This document shows, piece by piece, positions 30 to 62,633 of a stretch of 64,000 nt of DNA. Made by a program: the position numbers and the translations under genes. The DNA is from Eledone cirrhosa (Eukaryota). The notes below the pieces were generated by a model that worked only from the letters and a program-made list of their open reading frames with translations, was not told where the DNA came from and made no database searches. Every line of letters starts with the position of its first letter. Position 1 is the first letter of the stretch. Location of the stretch: positions 35,712,001 to 35,776,000 of the forward strand of contig OZ024759.1 of the NCBI GenBank assembly GCA_964016885.1, written 5' to 3'.

Positions 30-256
30 ATCTTTTTCATTAGAAATATGGTAATGAAAGGGTTAATGACATAGACAGTGTCTTTCATTAGAAATATGGT
101 AATGAAAGGGTTAATGACATAGACAGTGTCTTTCATTAGAAATATGGTAATGAAAGGGTTAATGACATAGACAGTGTCTTTCATTAGAAATATGGTAATG
201 AAAGGGTTAATGACATAGACAGTGTCTTTCATTAGAAATATGGTAATGAAAGGGTT
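30..256. repeat. 48-bp minisatellite (about 4.7 copies), MITE-end derived
   Basis: Unit tctttcattagaaatatggtaatgaaagggttaatgacatagacagtg; same unit at 2955-3090 and 51400-51740. Confidence 0.9.
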
Positions 257-262
257 ACTTAC

Positions 263-9325: not shown

Positions 9326-9591
9326 CATGGTGTCCGACCCTCTACCGATACTGCCAATCCACCGCCCTAGCATGGTGTCCGACCCTCTACCGATACTGCC
9401 AACCCACTGCCCTAGCATGGTGTCCGACCCTCTACCGATACTGCCAACCCACCGCCCTAGCATGGTGTCCGACCCTCTACCGATACTGCCAATCCACCGC
9501 CCTAGCATGGTGTCCGACCCTCTACCGATACTGCCAATCCACCGCCCTAGCATGGTGTCCGACCCTCTACCGATACTGCCAATCCACCGCC
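9326..9591 (-). repeat. 45-bp tandem repeat (6 copies) of a SINE 5' head
   Basis: Unit catggtgtccgaccctctaccgatactgccaatccaccgccctag, continuous with the SINE at 9181-9325. Confidence 0.9.
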
Positions 9592-9823
9592 TGAATCTAT
9601 TGGTCAGTAGTCTGACCAATAATGTTACCCACATCTTGGTCAGTTCAATAACTCCATTAATTAATCTTACCTAAATAACGAAGGCAGAATTACCCACCTC
9701 TCAGTTAGTATTATTAATCTTTTAATCTTAACTAATTAATTAAAATAGAGTTACCCACATCTTGGTCATTAGAATTTACCCATTAATTTACCTTAGCTAA
9801 TTAACAAAGTTAAAATTACCCAC

Positions 9824-17290: not shown

Positions 17291-17596
17291 CTACAAAATA
17301 TTGGGCAATTTATTGGACTTTCCTAAAGATTATCTGTGGACCCTACATATATTCTGTGGACCCTACAGATATTCTGTGGACCCTACAGATATTCTGTGGA
17401 CCCTACAAATATTCTATGGATCCTATATATATTCTGTGGACCTTACAGGTCTGGGTGACACCTTAATTATAATATTGTCCAATTCTTACCTGGTGACACC
17501 TTAATTACAATATCTCACCTAGTAACACCTTAATTACAATATAGCCCTATATCTTACCTAGTAACACCTTAATTACAATGTAGCCCTATATCTTAC

Positions 17597-17716
17597 CTGG
17601 TGGTCCCTCAATTGCACCATCAGTGTATCAGGATCAGAACTCACAGATTCAGCTGTGTTAATCTCGTTCTCTGCTTTATCCATATATTTCAACATACTTT
17701 CAATTTCTGTCAGAGC
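17597..17716 (-). CDS. MACF1: Spectraplakin exon, spectrin repeat
   Basis: gttctag/gtaaga; 120 nt; ALTEIESMLKYMDKAENEINTAESVSSDPDTLMVQLRDHQ. Confidence 0.9.
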
Positions 17717-18748
17717 CTAGAACAGAAAATATTGTATTTGTGAGTTTTTATATCAAATAATAGTAATATTTCATTCATTTTCCAGCAAACAGCCTCATTA
17801 CGCTGTGTTTTAGGTGACAACTGCCATCCAACTGTTCTAGCAATGACACAGGAAAACAATCAATAATATTAATGTTTTGGGCTTATTGCCCATTGTCAAG
17901 ATTGTGTCTCTCTCTTCTCTGTCACTCACAAGAACTCGAGAATATATAGTATATACCGGATTTCTTGGTGCCGAACATGCTTCGTCCTCAAGGACACACC
18001 CTAATTTTGACAACCAAAAATTTGAAAAAAAATAATAAACACCCTTCGGCTTCCAGGACGCATGGGAGATTTCTGAGACTTATTTTAGGGAAAAAGTAGC
18101 ATCTTCGACACTGGGAAAGTACATGGGTTAATCTTCGACACGGTAGTACATGGGTTAATGTACAACTGTCAGGAAAGTGAACCGTGTACGAGTCATGATA
18201 TACATACAGACACACACACACACACACATACACACACACACACACACACATACAGACACACACACATACAGACACACGTGTGCATGGAGCGGGAATATCA
18301 GGTGCAGTGTTGATGGTAATGAAGGGGACTGAGAAGAAAATATAATTGATTCTACTTTTGGCACAAGGCCAGCAATTACCCAGTACATTACTGGTACTTT
18401 ATTTTATCGACCCCGTAAGGATGAAGGGCAAAGTTAACCTCAGTGGGATTCAAATTCGGAACATAAAGAGCCAAAACTATGCTGCAAAGCATGGTGTCTG
18501 ATGCTTTACCGGTACTGCCAATCTAAATATGATTGTTTCTACTTTTTGGCACAAGGCTAGCAATTACCCCAGTGTATTACTGGTACTTTATTTTATCGAT
18601 CCCGTAAGGATGAAAGGTAAAGTTGACCTGGTGGGATTTGAACTCAGAAAACAAAGGTCCGTAACGCCATTCTGCAAAGCATGGCATCCAACCCTCTACC
18701 AATACTGCCAATCTAAATATAATAAAGAGTAAAGAGATTAGATACTAC

Positions 18749-19876
18749 CTCGACTGAAACTTTCTGTACAAGAAGTTCGGTGAGTTGATGCCAATCTTCC
18801 TGGACATCAGCAACAGCTTCCTTCAAATGGCAGCCATTGGAAACATTATCTTTGTCAGCAATCCGTTTTACCATTTCTTTGATGTTGTTTATGTCCGGTT
18901 CTTTGGATTTCTTTTCAGCATACAAAGCGTCGATCTTTGATTTAAACATGTGCAGGTTCTGTGACGGTATTTCACCATTTTGCTGAATCATATTAATAGA
19001 AGAAGTTAACCAAGACTTCATTATTCCTATCTTATCCTCCAAGTCTTCGATGTTTCCCATAACTTCCTCCAGATTAAGAACACGCATCACCGATAATGTC
19101 TCTATGTTTTCCATGCGCTCGTTTAAGTCTGAAATCTTCTCACTGGCACCAGTTACATCATACGAGTCCTTTAATAGACTCTCTAATAATGTCTTGTTGG
19201 TGCTCAGGTCTGCCTGAATACGCCTTTGTTCAAGCACCTGCTCTTCCAATCCTTGCTTCTCAAGACAAATCTCTAAATTCTTTGAGAGATCATTTTCAAT
19301 CGAAGACAGTTGCAGATCGACATTATCAAGTTGTTTCATCACATTTTTAGATTCAGACAACACTGCGTTTAATACTCCTTCTTTGTACTTTATGGAATCG
19401 TAAAGAATTTCGTAGGTATCTTTCCTGTTCTCTATTACTTCCTTCACTTTGATAGATTTTGGTTTCATGTTCAGTTCGTTGAACTCATCAGCCAGTTTAG
19501 AACCGACATGTTGCAAGTCTCGTATCCGTTTCTCTTGGTTTAAAATGTTAACTTTCAACTGTTTCACAGCTTCCAGCTGGAACGCTTCATTTGTCTCTTT
19601 TGACATATCAGAATCGTCTGAAATGCTATCAAACTTCATTTCTATATCAGAATAGTTGGAATCGAGTTTGTGGGAAAGTTCCTGGAAGCTTCTGTGGTGT
19701 TTTAGAGTGTAGGCCAGCTTTGTGAGGTACCGTTCAGATTCCTGCACTATCGAGCGATATTTCCCCTCCAGGGCCTCGATTTCATCATCAATCATGGCCG
19801 ATTCTTCTGTTTCTTCTTTGATTGTCGGAAGAATGTGGACGCATTTCCTGTATCGGTCAATTCCATTCATGAATTC
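18749..19876 (-). CDS. MACF1: Spectraplakin large exon, several spectrin repeats
   Basis: gtttag/gtagta; 1128 nt open frame, phase 0/0; EFMNGIDRY...VQEDWHQLTELLVQKVSVE; helical with repeated W-L motifs. Confidence 0.92.
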
Positions 19877-20183
19877 CTAAACAGAGAGAAAACATTCAAA
19901 GATAATTTCTTTAATAAAATAAGAAATGACTAACTACAAGAATGACTATAAAATAATTAGAAAAACACAACAAATATTTAAATGAAGGAAAGGCAAGGGC
20001 CACAGAGGAATGGGAGGGGGAAGGTGATGGGGTGGGGTGATGGCCACTAAGGTCACAGAAGAGTGGGGAGGTAAGAGGGAGGGTAATGAGCTCTGGGCCT
20101 AACCCTAACCCTTTTGTTAGAGAACTTCCAGGAACCAACTCTGCTGCTTCTATAATACAGAACTCCCTATTTTAAAGTATTGA

Positions 20184-20382
20184 TACAAGGGTCAGCTGAA
20201 AAGTTTATAAGCTGACTATGACGGAATGATGCTAGAGCTGTGAAATCTTGCATGCATTAATTTCACCTCTTCTTAATAACTGCATTGCTTCTTTCCAAGG
20301 ACAATGTTGAAAAATAAACCTCATTTGGTCATTCCATGAGAGTATCTTGGTCAGCTTATGAACCTTTCAGGCAACCCTCGTA
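20184..20382. mobile_element. Mariner-like MITE
   Basis: TA-flanked imperfect TIRs tacaagggtcagctgaaaagtttataagctgac / gtcagcttatgaacctttcaggcaaccctcgta. Confidence 0.65.
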
Positions 20383-20818
20383 CCTGCCAACATAATTTTA
20401 TGCAAGTACCTTTGTTAAGTTATATTCCAAACATCAGCCTACTATCTGTGAGGGCAACACTTTCTCCATTCTATCCACTGATACGAGATGACCCTCTCCC
20501 CAGTACTATTGTGATGTTACAATTCACTTATTCAGATTTAGCTGGCTTCCTACAGGGTCATGTCTCATAGGTTTCTCAGGTGTTTTAATGATAGAGGCCC
20601 CATTCCTATCACGTTGTTGTTGTTGTTACAACTCCCACCTTTGTAGGTTTAGCTGGCTTCTTAAGTTACATTTCTGGGGTGTTTTAATGCTACGGGGCCT
20701 CAGTTGTATCATGAAAAGACTCACCCCTGAGTCAGATACCAATTCATGTGCAGATGTTATCCCCTAATTGGGTGGACTGGACGGTTTATTAATTAACCAA
20801 ATTAATTCTAATTACTGA

Positions 20819-23800
20819 ACACATACACACAGACAAATGTAAGGTGAGACAATGAGATATAAGCAATATAACTTTACCCGAGTGTCATCACACATACACA
20901 CAGACAAATGTAAGGTGAGACAATGAGATATAAGCAATATAACTTTACCTGAGTGTCATCACACATACACACAGACAAATGTAAGGTGAGACAATGAGAT
21001 ATAAGCAATATAACTTTACCTGAGTGTCATCACACATACACACAGACAAATGTAAGGTGAGACAATGAGATATAAGCAATATAACTTTACCTGAGTGTCA
21101 TCACACATACACACAGACAAATGTAAGGTGAGACAATGAGATATAAGCAATATAACTTTACCCGAGTGTCATCACACATACACACAGACAAATGTAAGGT
21201 GAGACAATGAGATATAAGCAATATAACTTTACCCGAGTGTCATCACACATACACACAGACAAATGTAAGGTGAGACAATGAGATATAAGCAATATATCTT
21301 TACCTGAGTGTCATCACACATACACACAGACAAATGTAAGGTGAGACAATGAGATATAAGCAATATAACTTTACCCGAGTGTCATCACACATACACACAG
21401 ACAAATGTAAGGTGAGACAATGAGATATAAGCAATATAACTTTACCTGAGTGTCATCACACATACACACAGACAAATGTAAGGTGAGACAATGAGATATA
21501 AGCAATATAACTTTACCCGAGTGTCATCACACATACACACAGACAAATGTAAGGTGAGACAATGAGATATAAGCAATATAACTTTACCTGAGTGTCATCA
21601 CACATACACACAGACAAATGTAAGGTGAGACAATGAGATATAAGCAATATAACTTTACCCGAGTGTCATCACACATACACACAGACAAATGTAAGGTGAG
21701 ACAATGAGATATAAGCAATATAACTTTACCTGAGTGTCATCACACATACACACAGACAAATGTAAGGTGAGACAATGAGATATAAGCAATATAACTTTAC
21801 CCGAGTGTCATCACACATACACACAGACAAATGTAAGGTGAGACAATGAGATATAAGCAATATAACTTTACCTGAGTGTCATCACACATACACACAGACA
21901 AATGTAAGGTGAGACAATGAGATATAAGCAATATAACTTTACCCGAGTGTCATCACACATACACACAGACAAATGTAAGGTGAGACAATGAGATACAAGC
22001 AATATATCTTTACCTGAGTGTCATCACACATACACACAGACAAATGTAAGGTGAGACAATGAGATATAAGCAATATAACTTTACCCGAGTGTCATCACAC
22101 ATACACACAGACAAATGTAAGGTGAGACAATGAGATATAAGCAATATAACTTTACCTGAGTGTCATCACACATACACACAGACAAATGTAAGGTGAGACA
22201 ATGAGATATAAGCAATATAACTTTACCTGAGTGTCATCACACATACACACAGACAAATGTAAGGTGAGACAATGAGATATAAGCAATATAACTTTACCTG
22301 AGTGTCATCACACATACACACAGACAAATGTAAGGTGAGACAATGAGATATAAGCAATATATCTTTACCTGAGTGTCATCACACATACACACAGACAAAT
22401 GTAAGGTGAGACAATGAGATATAAGCAATATAACTTTACCTGAGTGTCATCACACATACACACAGACAAATGTAAGGTGAGACAATGAGATATAAGCAAT
22501 ATATCTTTACCTGAGTGTCATCACACATACACACAGACAAATGTAAGGTGAGACAATGAGATATAAGCAATATAACTTTACCTGAGTGTCATCACACATA
22601 CACACAGACAAATGTAAGGTGAGACAATGAGATATAAGCAATATATCTTTACCTGAGTGTCATCACACATACACACAGACAAATGTAAGGTGAGACAATG
22701 AGATATAAGCAATATAACTTTACCTGAGTGTCATCACACATACACACAGACAAATGTAAGGTGAGACAATGAGATATAAGCAATATAACTTTACCTGAGT
22801 GTCATCACACATACACACAGACAAATGTAAGGTGAGACAATGAGATATAAGCAATATAACTTTACCTGAGTGTCATCACACATACACACAGACAAATGTA
22901 AGGTGAGACAATGAGATATAAGCAATATAACTTTACCTGAGTGTCATCACACATACACACAGACAAATGTAAGGTGAGACAATGAGATATAAGCAATATA
23001 TCTTTACCTGAGTGTCATCACACATACACACAGACAAATGTAAGGTGAGACAATGAGATATAAGCAATATAACTTTACCTGAGTGTCATCACACATACAC
23101 ACAGACAAATGTAAGGTGAGACAATGAGATATAAGCAATATATCTTTACCTGAGTGTCATCACACATACACACAGACAAATGTAAGGTGAGACAATGAGA
23201 TATAAGCAATATAACTTTACCTGAGTGTCATCACACATACACACAGACAAATGTAAGGTGAGACAATGAGATATAAGCAATATATCTTTACCTGAGTGTC
23301 ATCACACATACACACAGACAAATGTAAGGTGAGACAATGAGATATAAGCAATATAACTTTACCTGAGTGTCATCACACATACACACAGACAAATGTAAGG
23401 TGAGACAATGAGATATAAGCAATATATCTTTACCTGAGTGTCATCACACATACACACAGACAAATGTAAGGTGAGACAATGAGATATAAGCAATATAACT
23501 TTACCCGAGTGTCATCACACATACACACAGACAAATGTAAGGTGAGACAATGAGATATAAGCAATATAACTTTACCCGAGTGTCATCACACATACACACA
23601 GACAAATGTAAGGTGAGACAATGAGATATAAGCAATATAACTTTACCCGAGTGTCATCACACATACACACAGACAAATGTAAGGTGAGACAATGAGATAT
23701 AAGCAATATAACTTTACCCGAGTGTCATCACACATACACACAGACAAATGTAAGGTGAGACAATGAGATATAAGCAATATAACTTTACCTGAGTGTCATC

Positions 23801-23963
23801 ACACATACACACAGACAAATGTAAGGTGAGACAATGAGATATAAGCAATATAACTTTACCCGAGTGTCATCACACATACACACAGACAAATGTAAGGTGA
23901 GACAATGAGATATAAGCAATATAACTTTACCTGAGTGTCATCTCACATACACACAGACAAATG
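20819..23963. repeat. 71-bp minisatellite, about 44 copies, derived from an exon/donor junction
   Basis: Unit aactttaccYgagtgtcatcacacatacacacagacaaatgtaaggtgagacaatgagatataagcaatat; period 71 (20941 to 21012). Confidence 0.97.
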
Positions 23964-24254
23964 TAATCAATATAATTTACCTGGGTGTCATCACACAGCC
24001 AAATGTAATCAATATAATTTACCTGGGTGTCATCACACAGCCAAATGTAATCAATATAATTTACCTGGGTGTCATCACGCACAGCCAAATATAATCAATA
24101 TAATTTACCTGGGTGTCATCACACACAGCCAAATGTAATCAATATAATTTACCTGGGTGTCATCACACACAGCCAAATGTAATCAATATAATTTACCTGG
24201 GTGTCATCACACACAGCCAAATATAATCAATATAATTTACCTGGGTGTCATCAC
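23964..24254. repeat. 42-44-bp tandem repeat; 6 extra copies of the exon end plus donor
   Basis: aatttacctgggtgtcatcac with donor dinucleotide at 23979, 24021, 24063, 24107, 24151, 24195, and the true donor at 24239. Confidence 0.95.
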
Positions 24255-24324
24255 GGAATTTATCAGCAAGTTTCATCAAAGCTGAGATTTCATTTTCTTT
24301 TGACTTCAACTCTTCAACATGTTC
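24241..24324 (-). CDS. MACF1: Spectraplakin exon (its 3' end seeds the adjacent tandem array)
   Basis: atttcag/gtaaat; 84 nt; EHVEELKSKENEISALMKLADKFRDDTQ. Confidence 0.88.
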
Positions 24325-27179: not shown

Positions 27180-27353
27180 CTTGAGCATCCCGTACTGGAC
27201 TTCAAGATCTTGCTGTGATACCTTAATACCATGGCCCTTCTCAACAGCTGTGTCCATCCATTGGTCAAGATCTTCAACGATGTTGTAGAAGTCTTCCAGA
27301 TCTTCATAGAGATCGTCAAATTTCTTGGTCCTCGTTTCAGCTTCATTAGAGGC
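27180..27353 (-). CDS. MACF1: Spectraplakin exon, spectrin repeat
   Basis: tattcag/gtaagc; 174 nt; ASNEAETRTKKFDDLYEDLEDFYNIVEDLDQWMDTAVEK...QYGMLK. Confidence 0.9.
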
Positions 27354-27932
27354 CTGAATAGAGACAGAGAGAGGTAGAGACAGGCCCATGGGGGGTTGAT
27401 AACTCCGCATGTAAAATAAAATTTGTCAGCTATTACATCCAGGTAAATCCAACAGCAGGTGGTAATCAGGTAATATCCGTTTGAATTGAGAATGACAGAA
27501 ACAAGAAAACATGTTTGTTTTCTCCACCGAAGAGAAAAAGAGTCGTAAAGTATGGAAGGATTAAATTAAAGTGAACAAAAACGCCAGAGAGAAGAGAAAA
27601 AATAAATCTGGCGATGTTTTTTTTTTTTCTCTCACTATTTAAAAAAAAATAAAAAAAAATATATATAGTAAAATATATATATAGTAAGGGGAGGGGGTCT
27701 ATCCAAGTCACAACTTCATAACAGACTCAGTATATCCAGGGTATCGTCCAATGAAGACAATTAACCTTTTCTTTCACTATTTTTTAGTTCTTTCTCTTTT
27801 TTTCCTTTGGTTTTCTATTCAAGTCCCACAACTTCATAAGCTTAAGATAACCGGGGTGTCGGTTAAGAAAGACTAACAAGAACAAAGATATATCAACACA
27901 TATAACACTCGTGTGTTATATATGTATGTATA

Positions 27933-59755: not shown

Positions 59756-59933
59756 GTACCCTTTCCATTTCAGTCAAATCCAAACAGTTCCAAAATATAT
59801 TTTGAAAGGTTTGTGAAAAAAAGGGATTCATACACGGTATATTAATAAAGTGTCACAGCCCTTCATAACATTCTCAAGTTTCTACCTTAATATATGTAAC
59901 CCCTGTGTAATGTAAACCCAAGTTTATAATATT

Positions 59934-62633
59934 TACTGTCCAGCCCTACATGTAATGTAACCCCTATATTTACTGTATTATATATAACACTGTCTGTCCA
60001 GCCCTACATGTATTGTAACCCCTATATTTACTGTATTATATATAACACTGTCTGTCCAGCCCTATATGTATTGTAACCCCTATATTTACTGTATTATATA
60101 TAACACTGTCTGTCCAGCCCTACATGTATTGTAACCCCTATATTTACTGTATTATATATAACACTGTCTGTCCAGCCCTACATGTATTGTAACCCCTATA
60201 TTTACTGTATTATATATAACACTGTCTGTCCAGCCCTACATGTATTGTAACCCCTATATTTACTGTATTATATATAACACTGTCTGTCCAGCCCTACATG
60301 TATTGTAACCCCTATATTTACTGTATTATATATAACATTGTCCAGCCCCACAAGTAATGTAACCCCTATATTTACTGTATTATATATAACACTGTCTGTC
60401 CAGCCCTACATGTAATGTAACCCCTATATTTACTGTATTATATATAACACTGTCTGTCCAGCCCTACATGTAATGTAACCCCTATATTTACTGTATTATA
60501 TATAACACTGTCTGTCCAGCCCTACATGTAATGTAACCCCTATATTTACTGTATTATATATAACACTGTCTGTCCAGCCCTACATGTAATGTAACCCCTA
60601 TATTTACTGTATTATATATAACACTGTCTGTCCAGCCCTACATGTAATGTAACCCCTATATTTACTGTATTATATATAACACTGTCTGTCCAGCCCTACA
60701 TGTAATGTAACCCCTATATTTACTGTACTATATATAACACTGTCTGTCCAGCCCTACATGTAATGTAACCCCTATATTTACTGTATTATATATAACATTG
60801 TCTGTCCAGCCCTACATGTATTGTAACCCCTATATTTACTGTATTATATATAACACTGTCTGTCCAGCCCTACATGTATTGTAACCCCTATATTTACTGT
60901 ATTATATATAACACTGTCTGTCCAGCCCTACATGTATTGTAACCCCTATATTTACTGTATTATATATAACACTGTCTGTCCAGCCCTACATGTAATGTAA
61001 CCCCTATATTTACTGTATTATATATAACACTGTCTGTCCAGCCCTATATGTAATGTAACCCCTATATTTACTGTATTATATATAACACTGTCTGTCCAGC
61101 CCTACATGTAATGTAACCCCTATATTTACTGTATTATATATAACACTGTCTGTCCAGCCCTACATGTAATGTAACCCCTATATTTACTGTATTATATATA
61201 ACACTGTCTGTCCAGCCCTACATGTAATGTAACCCCTATATTTACTGTATTATATATAACACTGTCTGTCCAGCCCTACATGTAATGTAACCCCTATATT
61301 TACTGTATTATATATAACACTGTCTGTCCAGCCCTACATGTAATGTAACCCCTATATTTACTGTATTATATATAACATTGTCTGTCCAGCCCTACATGTA
61401 TTGTAACCCCTATATTTACTGTATTATATATAACACTGTCTGTCCAGCCCTACATGTAATGTAACCCCTATATTTACTGTATTATATATAACACTGTCTG
61501 TCCAGCCCTACATGTATTGTAACCCCTATATTTACTGTATTATATATAACACTGTCTGTCCAGCCCTACATGTATTGTAACCCCTATATTTACTGTATTA
61601 TATATAACACTGTCTGTCCAGCCCTACATGTAATGTAACCCCTATATTTACTGTATTATATATAACACTGTCTGTCCAGCCCTATATGTAATGTAACCCC
61701 TATATTTACTGTATTATATATAACACTGTCTGTCCAGCCCTACATGTAATGTAACCCCTATATTTACTGTATTATATATAACACTGTCTGTCCAGCCCTA
61801 CATGTAATGTAACCCCTATATTTACTGTATTATATATAACACTGTCTGTCCAGCCCTACATGTAATGTAACCCCTATATTTACTGTATTATATATAACAC
61901 TGTCTGTCCAGCCCTACATGTAATGTAACCCCTATATTTACTGTATTATATATAACATTGTCTGTCCAGCCCTACATGTATTGTAACCCCTATATTTACT
62001 GTATTATATATAACACTGTCTGTCCAGCCCTACATGTATTGTAACCCCTATATTTACTGTATTATATATAACACTGTCTGTCCAGCCCTACATGTATTGT
62101 AACCCCTATATTTACTGTATTATATATAACACTGTCTGTCCAGCCCTACATGTAATGTAACCCCTATATTTACTGTATTATATATAACACTGTCTGTCCA
62201 GCCCTATATGTAATGTAACCCCTATATTTACTGTATTATATATAACACTGTCTGTCCAGCCCTACATGTAATGTAACCCCTATATTTACTGTATTATATA
62301 TAACACTGTCTGTCCAGCCCTACATGTAATGTAACCCCTATATTTACTGTATTATATATAACACTGTCTGTCCAGCCCTACATGTAATGTAACCCCTATA
62401 TTTACTGTACTATATATAACACTGTCTGTCCAGCCCTACATGTAATGTAACCCCTATATTTACTGTATTATATATAACATTGTCTGTCCAGCCCTACATG
62501 TAATGTAACCCCTATATTTACTGTATTATATATAACACTGTCTGTCCAGCCCTACATGTAATGTAACCCCTATATTTACTGTACTATATATAACATTGTC
62601 CAGCCCCACAAGTAATGTAACCCCTATATTTAC
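59934..62633. repeat. 58-bp minisatellite, about 46 copies
   Basis: Unit gccctacatgtaWtgtaacccctatatttactgtattatatataacactgtctgtcca; period 58 (60001 to 60059). Confidence 0.97.

Follow-up and report, generated by a model that had tools for sequence, protein, structure and literature searches.

A junction-spanning minisatellite reiterates a donor site within a spectraplakin gene of the octopod Eledone cirrhosa

Introduction

Intron 7 of the human F7 gene carries a 37-bp VNTR whose first unit lies across the exon/intron junction and by which the donor is reiterated, and minigene studies in mammalian cells described by Borensztajn et al. (2006; PMC1557585) indicated that the resultant pseudo-sites are functional yet lose to the most upstream donor. 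Listed with F7 in that account are the genes 6-16 (25 pseudo-sites), CBS (intron 13), LMNB2 (100 bp) and PDGF (intron 4; 81 bp), and for cases of this type it gives the donor used as either the first alone or the first plus two pseudo-sites. Among invertebrates, the 'mirage' repeats of the amphioxus Adh3 and globin genes are built from units bearing AG/GT, as presented by Ebner et al. (2010; PMC3087553) without disturbance of splicing.

Two further systems place AG next to GT. The recursive sites of Drosophila, as characterised by Pai et al. (2018; PMC6110457; cf. PMC8605326), are strong juxtaposed motifs that are conserved and located in very long introns, while intron gain that starts from an exonic AGGT copied in tandem, in the treatment by Hellsten et al. 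(2011; PMC3265369), needs an AG/GT spliced junction plus a pyrimidine tract in the duplicated piece. A literature search that covered few subscription papers found no cephalopod case of a junction-spanning donor array. The present study concerns such an array in a 64,000-nt stretch of octopod DNA (the window), the units of which a first-pass annotation had read chiefly as back-to-back mini-introns suited to recursive splicing.

Materials and Methods

For the gene model, 200 kb of flanks were added to the window, giving 264 kb examined in all, and junctions were fitted with the O. sinensis MACF1 X4 protein (tblastn plus junction fitting). Of 47 junctions fitted, 44 were kept; the other three (rows 1, 3 and 12) were weakly supported and left out of all counts, including row 12 after its later correction (acceptor 48233). 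Donor and acceptor weight matrices were built from 66 other introns of the genome, of which 43 belong to the spectraplakin gene and 23 to one encoding a dynein heavy chain, and accordingly constitute a small model. Read contigs were compared over 18700-20940 (four of seven runs); four runs contain the downstream exon, none being recorded as RNA, and run X1 was judged RNA-like from its exon-shaped contig. Reiteration of donors was compared with that of first-of-series intronic GTs, a control preferred to one based on all intronic GTs because the latter includes mid-array positions.

Results

The array is located on the minus strand in a spectraplakin (MACF1/dystonin/shot-like) gene, the downstream exon of which showed a 79% match to an Octopus bimaculoides spectrin/EF-hand/GAS2 protein and also matched O. 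sinensis MACF1. The array-bearing intron (24240..19877; 4364 nt; phase 0) is flanked by exons whose spliced junction reads CAG/GAA, and 11 of the 44 introns counted in this gene are of at least that length. Both the DDTQ/EFMNG junction and the 28-residue exon preceding it were common to all 13 Octopus proteins spanning the region, among 37 proteins besides the query, and tblastn placed the preceding exon, 27180..27353, colinear with the gene on the minus strand. The relevant features, in order of transcription and with a slash marking each exon/intron boundary, are as follows.

27180..27353, minus strand: preceding coding exon, ending in CTCAAG/gt (O. sinensis MACF1 X4 by tblastn, junction fitting).
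24241..24324, minus strand: 84-nt coding exon (EHVEEL...DDTQ), the last 12-14 nt of which form the exon part of the repeat unit (unit parse, junction fitting, 13 Octopus proteins).
24235..24243, minus strand: authentic 5' splice site CAG/GTAAAT, 10.3 bits (junction fitting, weight matrix).
23981..24254, minus strand: block of 42-44-nt units with six decoy donors that equal the real donor from -14 to +14 (TRF, unit parse).
23931..23980, minus strand: 50-nt hybrid unit that starts as the 44-nt type and ends as the 71-nt type (unit parse).
20819..23930, minus strand: 71-nt minisatellite made up of 43 complete units and a final one of 59 nt, with 44 donor copies and variants patterned in dimers (TRF, unit parse, exact pattern matches).
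19877..20818, minus strand: non-array 3' part of the intron, with pieces of high-copy dispersed repeat and the authentic pyrimidine-rich acceptor (sequence, junction fitting, read contigs).
18749..19876, minus strand: 1128-nt downstream coding exon (EFMNG...), exactly covered by a 7592-nt contig of run X1 (junction fitting, protein matches, read contigs).

Two other observations were made in this part of the gene. At 27180-27410 on the minus strand the encoded protein was 100% identical to that of Octopus sinensis, compared with approximately 78-79% for neighbouring exons, and the intron bases upstream of exon 27180-27353 still translated like the N-terminus of an O. bimaculoides model; this stretch may be an alternative 5' end or a conserved regulatory element. 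The dispersed repeat pieces at 20190-20430 and 20500-20720 were present at very high copy, with summed contig depths of up to 7 x 10^5 in the DNA-like runs and many fold-back joints.

A unit-by-unit parse located 51 donor motifs, namely the real one (first intron base 24240) and 50 copies, in agreement with the earlier estimate of about 50 copies of an exon end plus donor. The array starts 14 nt inside exon 24241-24324, its first unit consequently spanning the real exon/intron boundary, and the six further CCCAG/GTAAAT donors reported previously were recovered at 24196, 24152, 24108, 24064, 24022 and 23980 in units of 44, 44, 44, 44, 42 and 42 nt. A single 50-nt transition unit separates these short units from the 44 GTAAAG donors, which run from 23930 to 20877 at 71-nt spacing and follow CTCAG in 30 cases and CTCGG in 14, again as first described. 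Among the 43 complete 71-nt units, 29 end in CAG and 14 in CGG, whereas the 44th ends after 59 nt; unique intron extends from 20818, and the authentic acceptor is situated 943 nt beyond the end of the array. TRF returned 71 x 44.3 at 98% identity and 44 x 7.0 at 96%, only three of the 71 columns of the longer unit (7, 18 and 70) being variable. The array was confined to one locus of the 3.0-Gb assembly, as judged from 21 of 21 DNA matches (at least 21 in number) and 35 of 35 exact pattern matches, and was the longest in the 264 kb examined.

The predicted coding consequences of decoy use were likewise as originally proposed: the first decoy adds 44 nt and shifts the frame, and later decoys run into an in-frame TAA at 24195-24193. 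A premature stop would result from each of the 50 decoys.

With the weight matrices, the real site and the 44-nt decoys each scored 10.3 bits as donors, CAG/GTAAAG scored 8.5 and CGG/GTAAAG 6.1, against a leave-one-out median of 9.1 for real donors. Since 30 of the 66 real donors scored no higher than 8.5 bits, the AG/GT units thus possess a donor half of real strength. By way of contrast, the CAG end of the 71-nt unit scored 0.7 bits as an acceptor compared with a median of 8.4 for real acceptors (n = 66), two of which scored as low, and it was equalled or bettered by 44% of 2233 ordinary intronic CAGs; the ends of the short units, at -1.1 to -2.0 bits, fell below all 66. The 12 nt at -15 to -4 before each CAG, TGTGATGACACT, contain six pyrimidines, a proportion (6/12) as low as which was found in four of the 66 real acceptors, and of their four T residues none is at -5 or -6, positions at one or other of which 58 of the 66 real acceptors have a T and which in the unit consist of exon copy. 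The acceptor of the array-bearing intron itself scored only 3.5 bits.

Beyond position 6 the terminal AG is, as previously stated, the only AG of the unit. The pyrimidine-rich body with branch-like words that had been attributed to each unit does exist, with CTCAC and CTTAC at 38 and 33 nt from the unit 3' end, but it occupies the middle of the unit. The shortest real intron measured 91 nt (n = 67), compared with 42-44 nt for the first six units, and within 169 kb of ordinary introns 24 of 572 AG/GT sites were at least as good in both halves as those of the array.

Folding predictions for one 71-nt unit (22937-23007), based on few folded sequences, gave two hairpins with energies better than those of shuffles (z = -2.4 and -2.7 as RNA; -1.9 and -2.3 as DNA), in which branch-like words were predicted to pair with the exon copy; a single 44-nt unit was unremarkable (z = -0.1). 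Such hairpins could favour expansion or mask acceptor use. Hairpin masking was also considered as the cause of silent decoys, for which it offered a hint only and was rejected: the real donor was predicted to be as paired (0.88) as the decoys (0.88-0.89), and the 44-nt unit folded no better than its shuffles.

The composition of the units is informative with regard to their origin. The 71-nt unit comprises the last 12 bases of the exon and the first 59 of the intron, and its breakpoints share a 2-nt GT microhomology; both breakpoints follow GT, the trace that a single small tandem duplication over the junction would leave. An AG/GT arises by construction whenever a tandem duplication reaches across a donor preceded by an exon-terminal AG. 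Aligned to the 71-nt unit, the 44-nt unit shows three gaps (1, 20 and 6 nt), and while the real exon end matches the 44-nt type, the unique intron continues from the 71-nt type. Unit states recurred at lag 2 with a frequency of 0.67 compared with 0.36 in shuffles, a value reached by none of 5000 shuffles, as expected if dimers amplify as blocks, and the CGG variant, which destroys the AG, has spread to 14 of the 44 copies.

The surrounding DNA is itself rich in repeats of this kind. The 264 kb around the gene contained 142 complex minisatellite loci totalling 45.7 kb, and 11 arrays exceeded 1 kb at 91-98% identity, including that under study and others of 58 x 46.7, 53 x 44.4 and 63 x 35. AGGT was present in at least half of the units of eight of the 38 arrays with five or more copies. 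Scored by repeats within 400 nt, four of 67 annotated donors were reiterated (24240, 17596, 9823 and one dynein donor, 22 nt x 18), together with one of 67 acceptors. The first-of-series control gave 129 reiterated of 3000 intronic GTs (4.3%; p = 0.54 against the four of 67), from which it appears that junction-spanning arrays are approximately as frequent as array starts at any intronic position; against all intronic GTs (564 of 3000 reiterated), a control that contains mid-array positions, donors were depleted (p = 0.004).

Several of these loci merit individual description. In the spectraplakin gene, donor 17596 (17480-17598, minus strand) opens a 306-nt intron with four AG/GT donors at +0, +39, +78 and +107 (12.1, 9.3, 7.3 and 12.1 bits), and donor 9823 (approximately 9590-9820, minus strand) is associated with an older, degenerate duplication in which GAG/GTGGGT occurs again at 126 nt within the intron; two further strong donor-like sites are found there at +32 and +153. 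The donor in the gene for an axonemal dynein heavy chain (plus strand, with first intron base 42359158 of G000:C17; L047:9151-9550) has 18 repeats of a 22-nt unit at 95% identity, the units being far below intron size. A 58-nt x 46.7 minisatellite of 98% identity at 59929-62633, in a spectraplakin intron and with no link to a splice site, offers a ready negative control. A 48-nt unit found in several separate spectraplakin arrays (window 35-257; L012/L013 and L015, about -22000 and -48000 to -49000 from the window start) is a dispersed minisatellite family; one such array starts 5 nt after the donor at 262 and fills most of a 257-nt intron, and another ends 21 nt before an acceptor.

Donor use was assessed from the read contigs. 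Run X1 yielded one 7592-nt contig (depth 16.6) on 18748-19878, the record of which extends 3.5 kb upstream and enters the exon at the expected acceptor. Its match extends two bases, AG, into the intron; the upstream partner must therefore end in AG, which excludes the CGG donors but is compatible with the real donor, with either of decoys 1 and 2, or with a skipped 84-nt exon, given that the preceding exon also ends in AG. A message spliced from decoy 3 or later would carry at least 41 repeated 31-mers, which should break a contig assembled at what we take to be k = 31, and the X1 contig consequently argues against decoy 3 or any later one as the main form. Among the 15 joints listed of 98, none linked an array donor to 19876. 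In X1 the array end reached a depth of 8, compared with 0 for three bins of intron outside repeats, a pattern that fits either low levels of pre-mRNA or the pooling of DNA from many copies; no array sequence came from the RAD run X5.

Discussion

These results are most readily accommodated by a passive, recently expanded minisatellite that spans the junction, the intron probably being excised in a single step that uses the first, authentic donor. A small duplication at the junction would have been amplified by slippage or unequal exchange, apparently recently, in the manner of the numerous other minisatellites of the genome; the upstream donor would then prevail through exon definition or 5'-first selection, as demonstrated in human F7, and any rare use of a decoy would introduce a premature stop and probably entail removal of the message by nonsense-mediated decay.

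Alternative explanations need to be weighed against the same data. The idea that assembly has expanded the array, or that the animal itself carries a much shorter one, derives some encouragement from read depth: a collapsed 101-nt unit contig exceeded a unique exon contig 8.3-fold in run X2 (37.4/4.52) and 12.9-fold in run X4 (86.9/6.75), compared with a ratio of about 34 expected, by an estimate from variant counts, for 44 units on both chromosomes. However, contig depth does not equate to copy number, and each of the two read sets clearly contained the unit in many copies; a collapsed or inflated repeat would not be expected to show ordered dimer patterns or the 44-50-71 transition, and length polymorphism would fit the depth ratios equally well, X2 and X4 differing from the assembly at 19049 and hence perhaps representing another haplotype or animal. 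The array is real and multi-copy, although its length may vary or its coverage be biased, and an assembly artefact is accordingly very hard to credit. The recursive reading, whereby each 71-nt GT...CAG unit would be cut out as a mini-intron with regeneration of the donor and the intron removed mostly stepwise, can call upon the 29 of 43 full units that start with GT and end with CAG with no inner AG, upon the spacing of CTCAC and CTTAC from the unit 3' end, upon a length of 71 nt that exceeds the approximately 60-nt minimum cited in PMC3265369, where a duplicated AG/GT segment is also given as spliced at 6-16%, and upon the two real acceptors no better than the unit end plus the modest acceptor of the intron itself. 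Ranged against it are the poor acceptor half, matched by almost half of ordinary intronic CAGs and lacking the T that most real acceptors carry, the loss of AG from 14 of the 43 full units, first units that fall below 60 nt and below the shortest real intron, and the 24 ordinary intronic sites of equal quality; moreover, the segment described in PMC3265369 had a pyrimidine tract (7/8) where the unit has none at its AG, fly recursive sites as portrayed in PMC6110457 are strong, conserved and housed in very long introns rather than one of 4.4 kb, and the predicted unit hairpin would engage the branch-like words with the exon copy. Judged on sequence, ratcheted removal of this intron is unlikely, and the mini-introns proposed at the outset are not borne out. 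A fuller version of that reading, in which the 29 CAG-ended units would serve as serial zero-length-exon sites of a recursive intron built de novo by a young minisatellite, with array length setting the splicing rate or the loss of neuronal or muscle spectraplakin through nonsense-mediated decay, would if true reveal a novel route by which ratcheted introns can be built; the sequence speaks against it, however, and it must be considered highly improbable.

Another possibility is that the array is a source of leaky poison donors: a noticeable fraction of transcripts would use the first, or the first two, of the 44-nt decoys (or would skip the 84-nt exon), such that array alleles would tune full-length spectraplakin via nonsense-mediated decay. 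Decoys 1-6 are identical to the real donor in sequence and score, every decoy leads to a premature stop, the X1 contig fits decoy 1 as well as the real donor, and human 6-16 and CBS are recorded in PMC1557585 as using two pseudo-sites. On the other hand, the same source has F7, LMNB2 and PDGF using the first site only, as do the amphioxus mirages in the account of PMC3087553; the listed joints included none from an array donor to the acceptor; and the recovery of one continuous 7.6-kb contig points to a single dominant form, albeit that contigs drop minor isoforms. Of the earlier suggestion of poison alternative donors, the real-strength donors and the predicted uniformly truncating outcome stand, and low-level use of the first decoys may occur, but their use at a noticeable level is rather doubtful. 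A functional U1 snRNP decoy array, acting as a sponge or protecting the transcript from early polyadenylation, would exploit 50 donor-strength sites in 3.4 kb, yet that argument amounts to a count of motifs at a single young locus where the weaker CGG units have spread freely and where donor regions, that of the real site included, are predicted to be paired at 15 C; we regard it as scarcely conceivable.

The array most likely adds an unusually long member to a known type of repeat, and indicates that junction-spanning repeats recur (four of 67 donors) in an octopod genome rich in minisatellites. Its value may lie in offering a naturally occurring trial of whether a mollusc chooses donors 5'-first, its decoys (six identical, 44 near-identical) differing by single bases that allow them to be told apart.

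Comparison with known systems places the array nearest to the F7, 6-16, CBS, LMNB2 and PDGF repeats of PMC1557585, with which it shares a first unit spanning the junction, a donor copied into the intron, a single locus and a unit within the 22-100 nt range, while differing from the members described there in its greater copy number (50 versus 5-25), its two unit types plus a hybrid and its cephalopod host. The amphioxus mirages are similarly minisatellite-like duplications of exon-intron boundaries in an invertebrate, with AG/GT in many though not all units, and are reported in PMC3087553 to exhibit concerted evolution, divergent edge units and no apparent interference with splicing; the present array belongs to another lineage and is longer than those described. 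With the Drosophila recursive sites of PMC6110457 it has in common an intronic juxtaposition of AG and GT and a donor half of real strength, but instead of a strong pyrimidine-tract acceptor in a very long intron it presents a weak acceptor half, lacking its AG altogether in 14 units, at 71-nt spacing in an intron of 4364 nt. Intron gain by AGGT duplication, also raised in the first-pass annotation, involves as set out in PMC3265369 a tandem duplication that likewise sets GT and AG more than 60 nt apart; here, however, the duplicated piece is mostly intron and has no pyrimidine tract at its AG, the spliced junction is CAG/GAA and the acceptor is outside the array, for which reasons that model is not supported. 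By analogy with F7, CBS, 6-16, LMNB2, PDGF and the mirages, the array is likely to be a young junction-spanning minisatellite of a known type in which the first donor is the one used.
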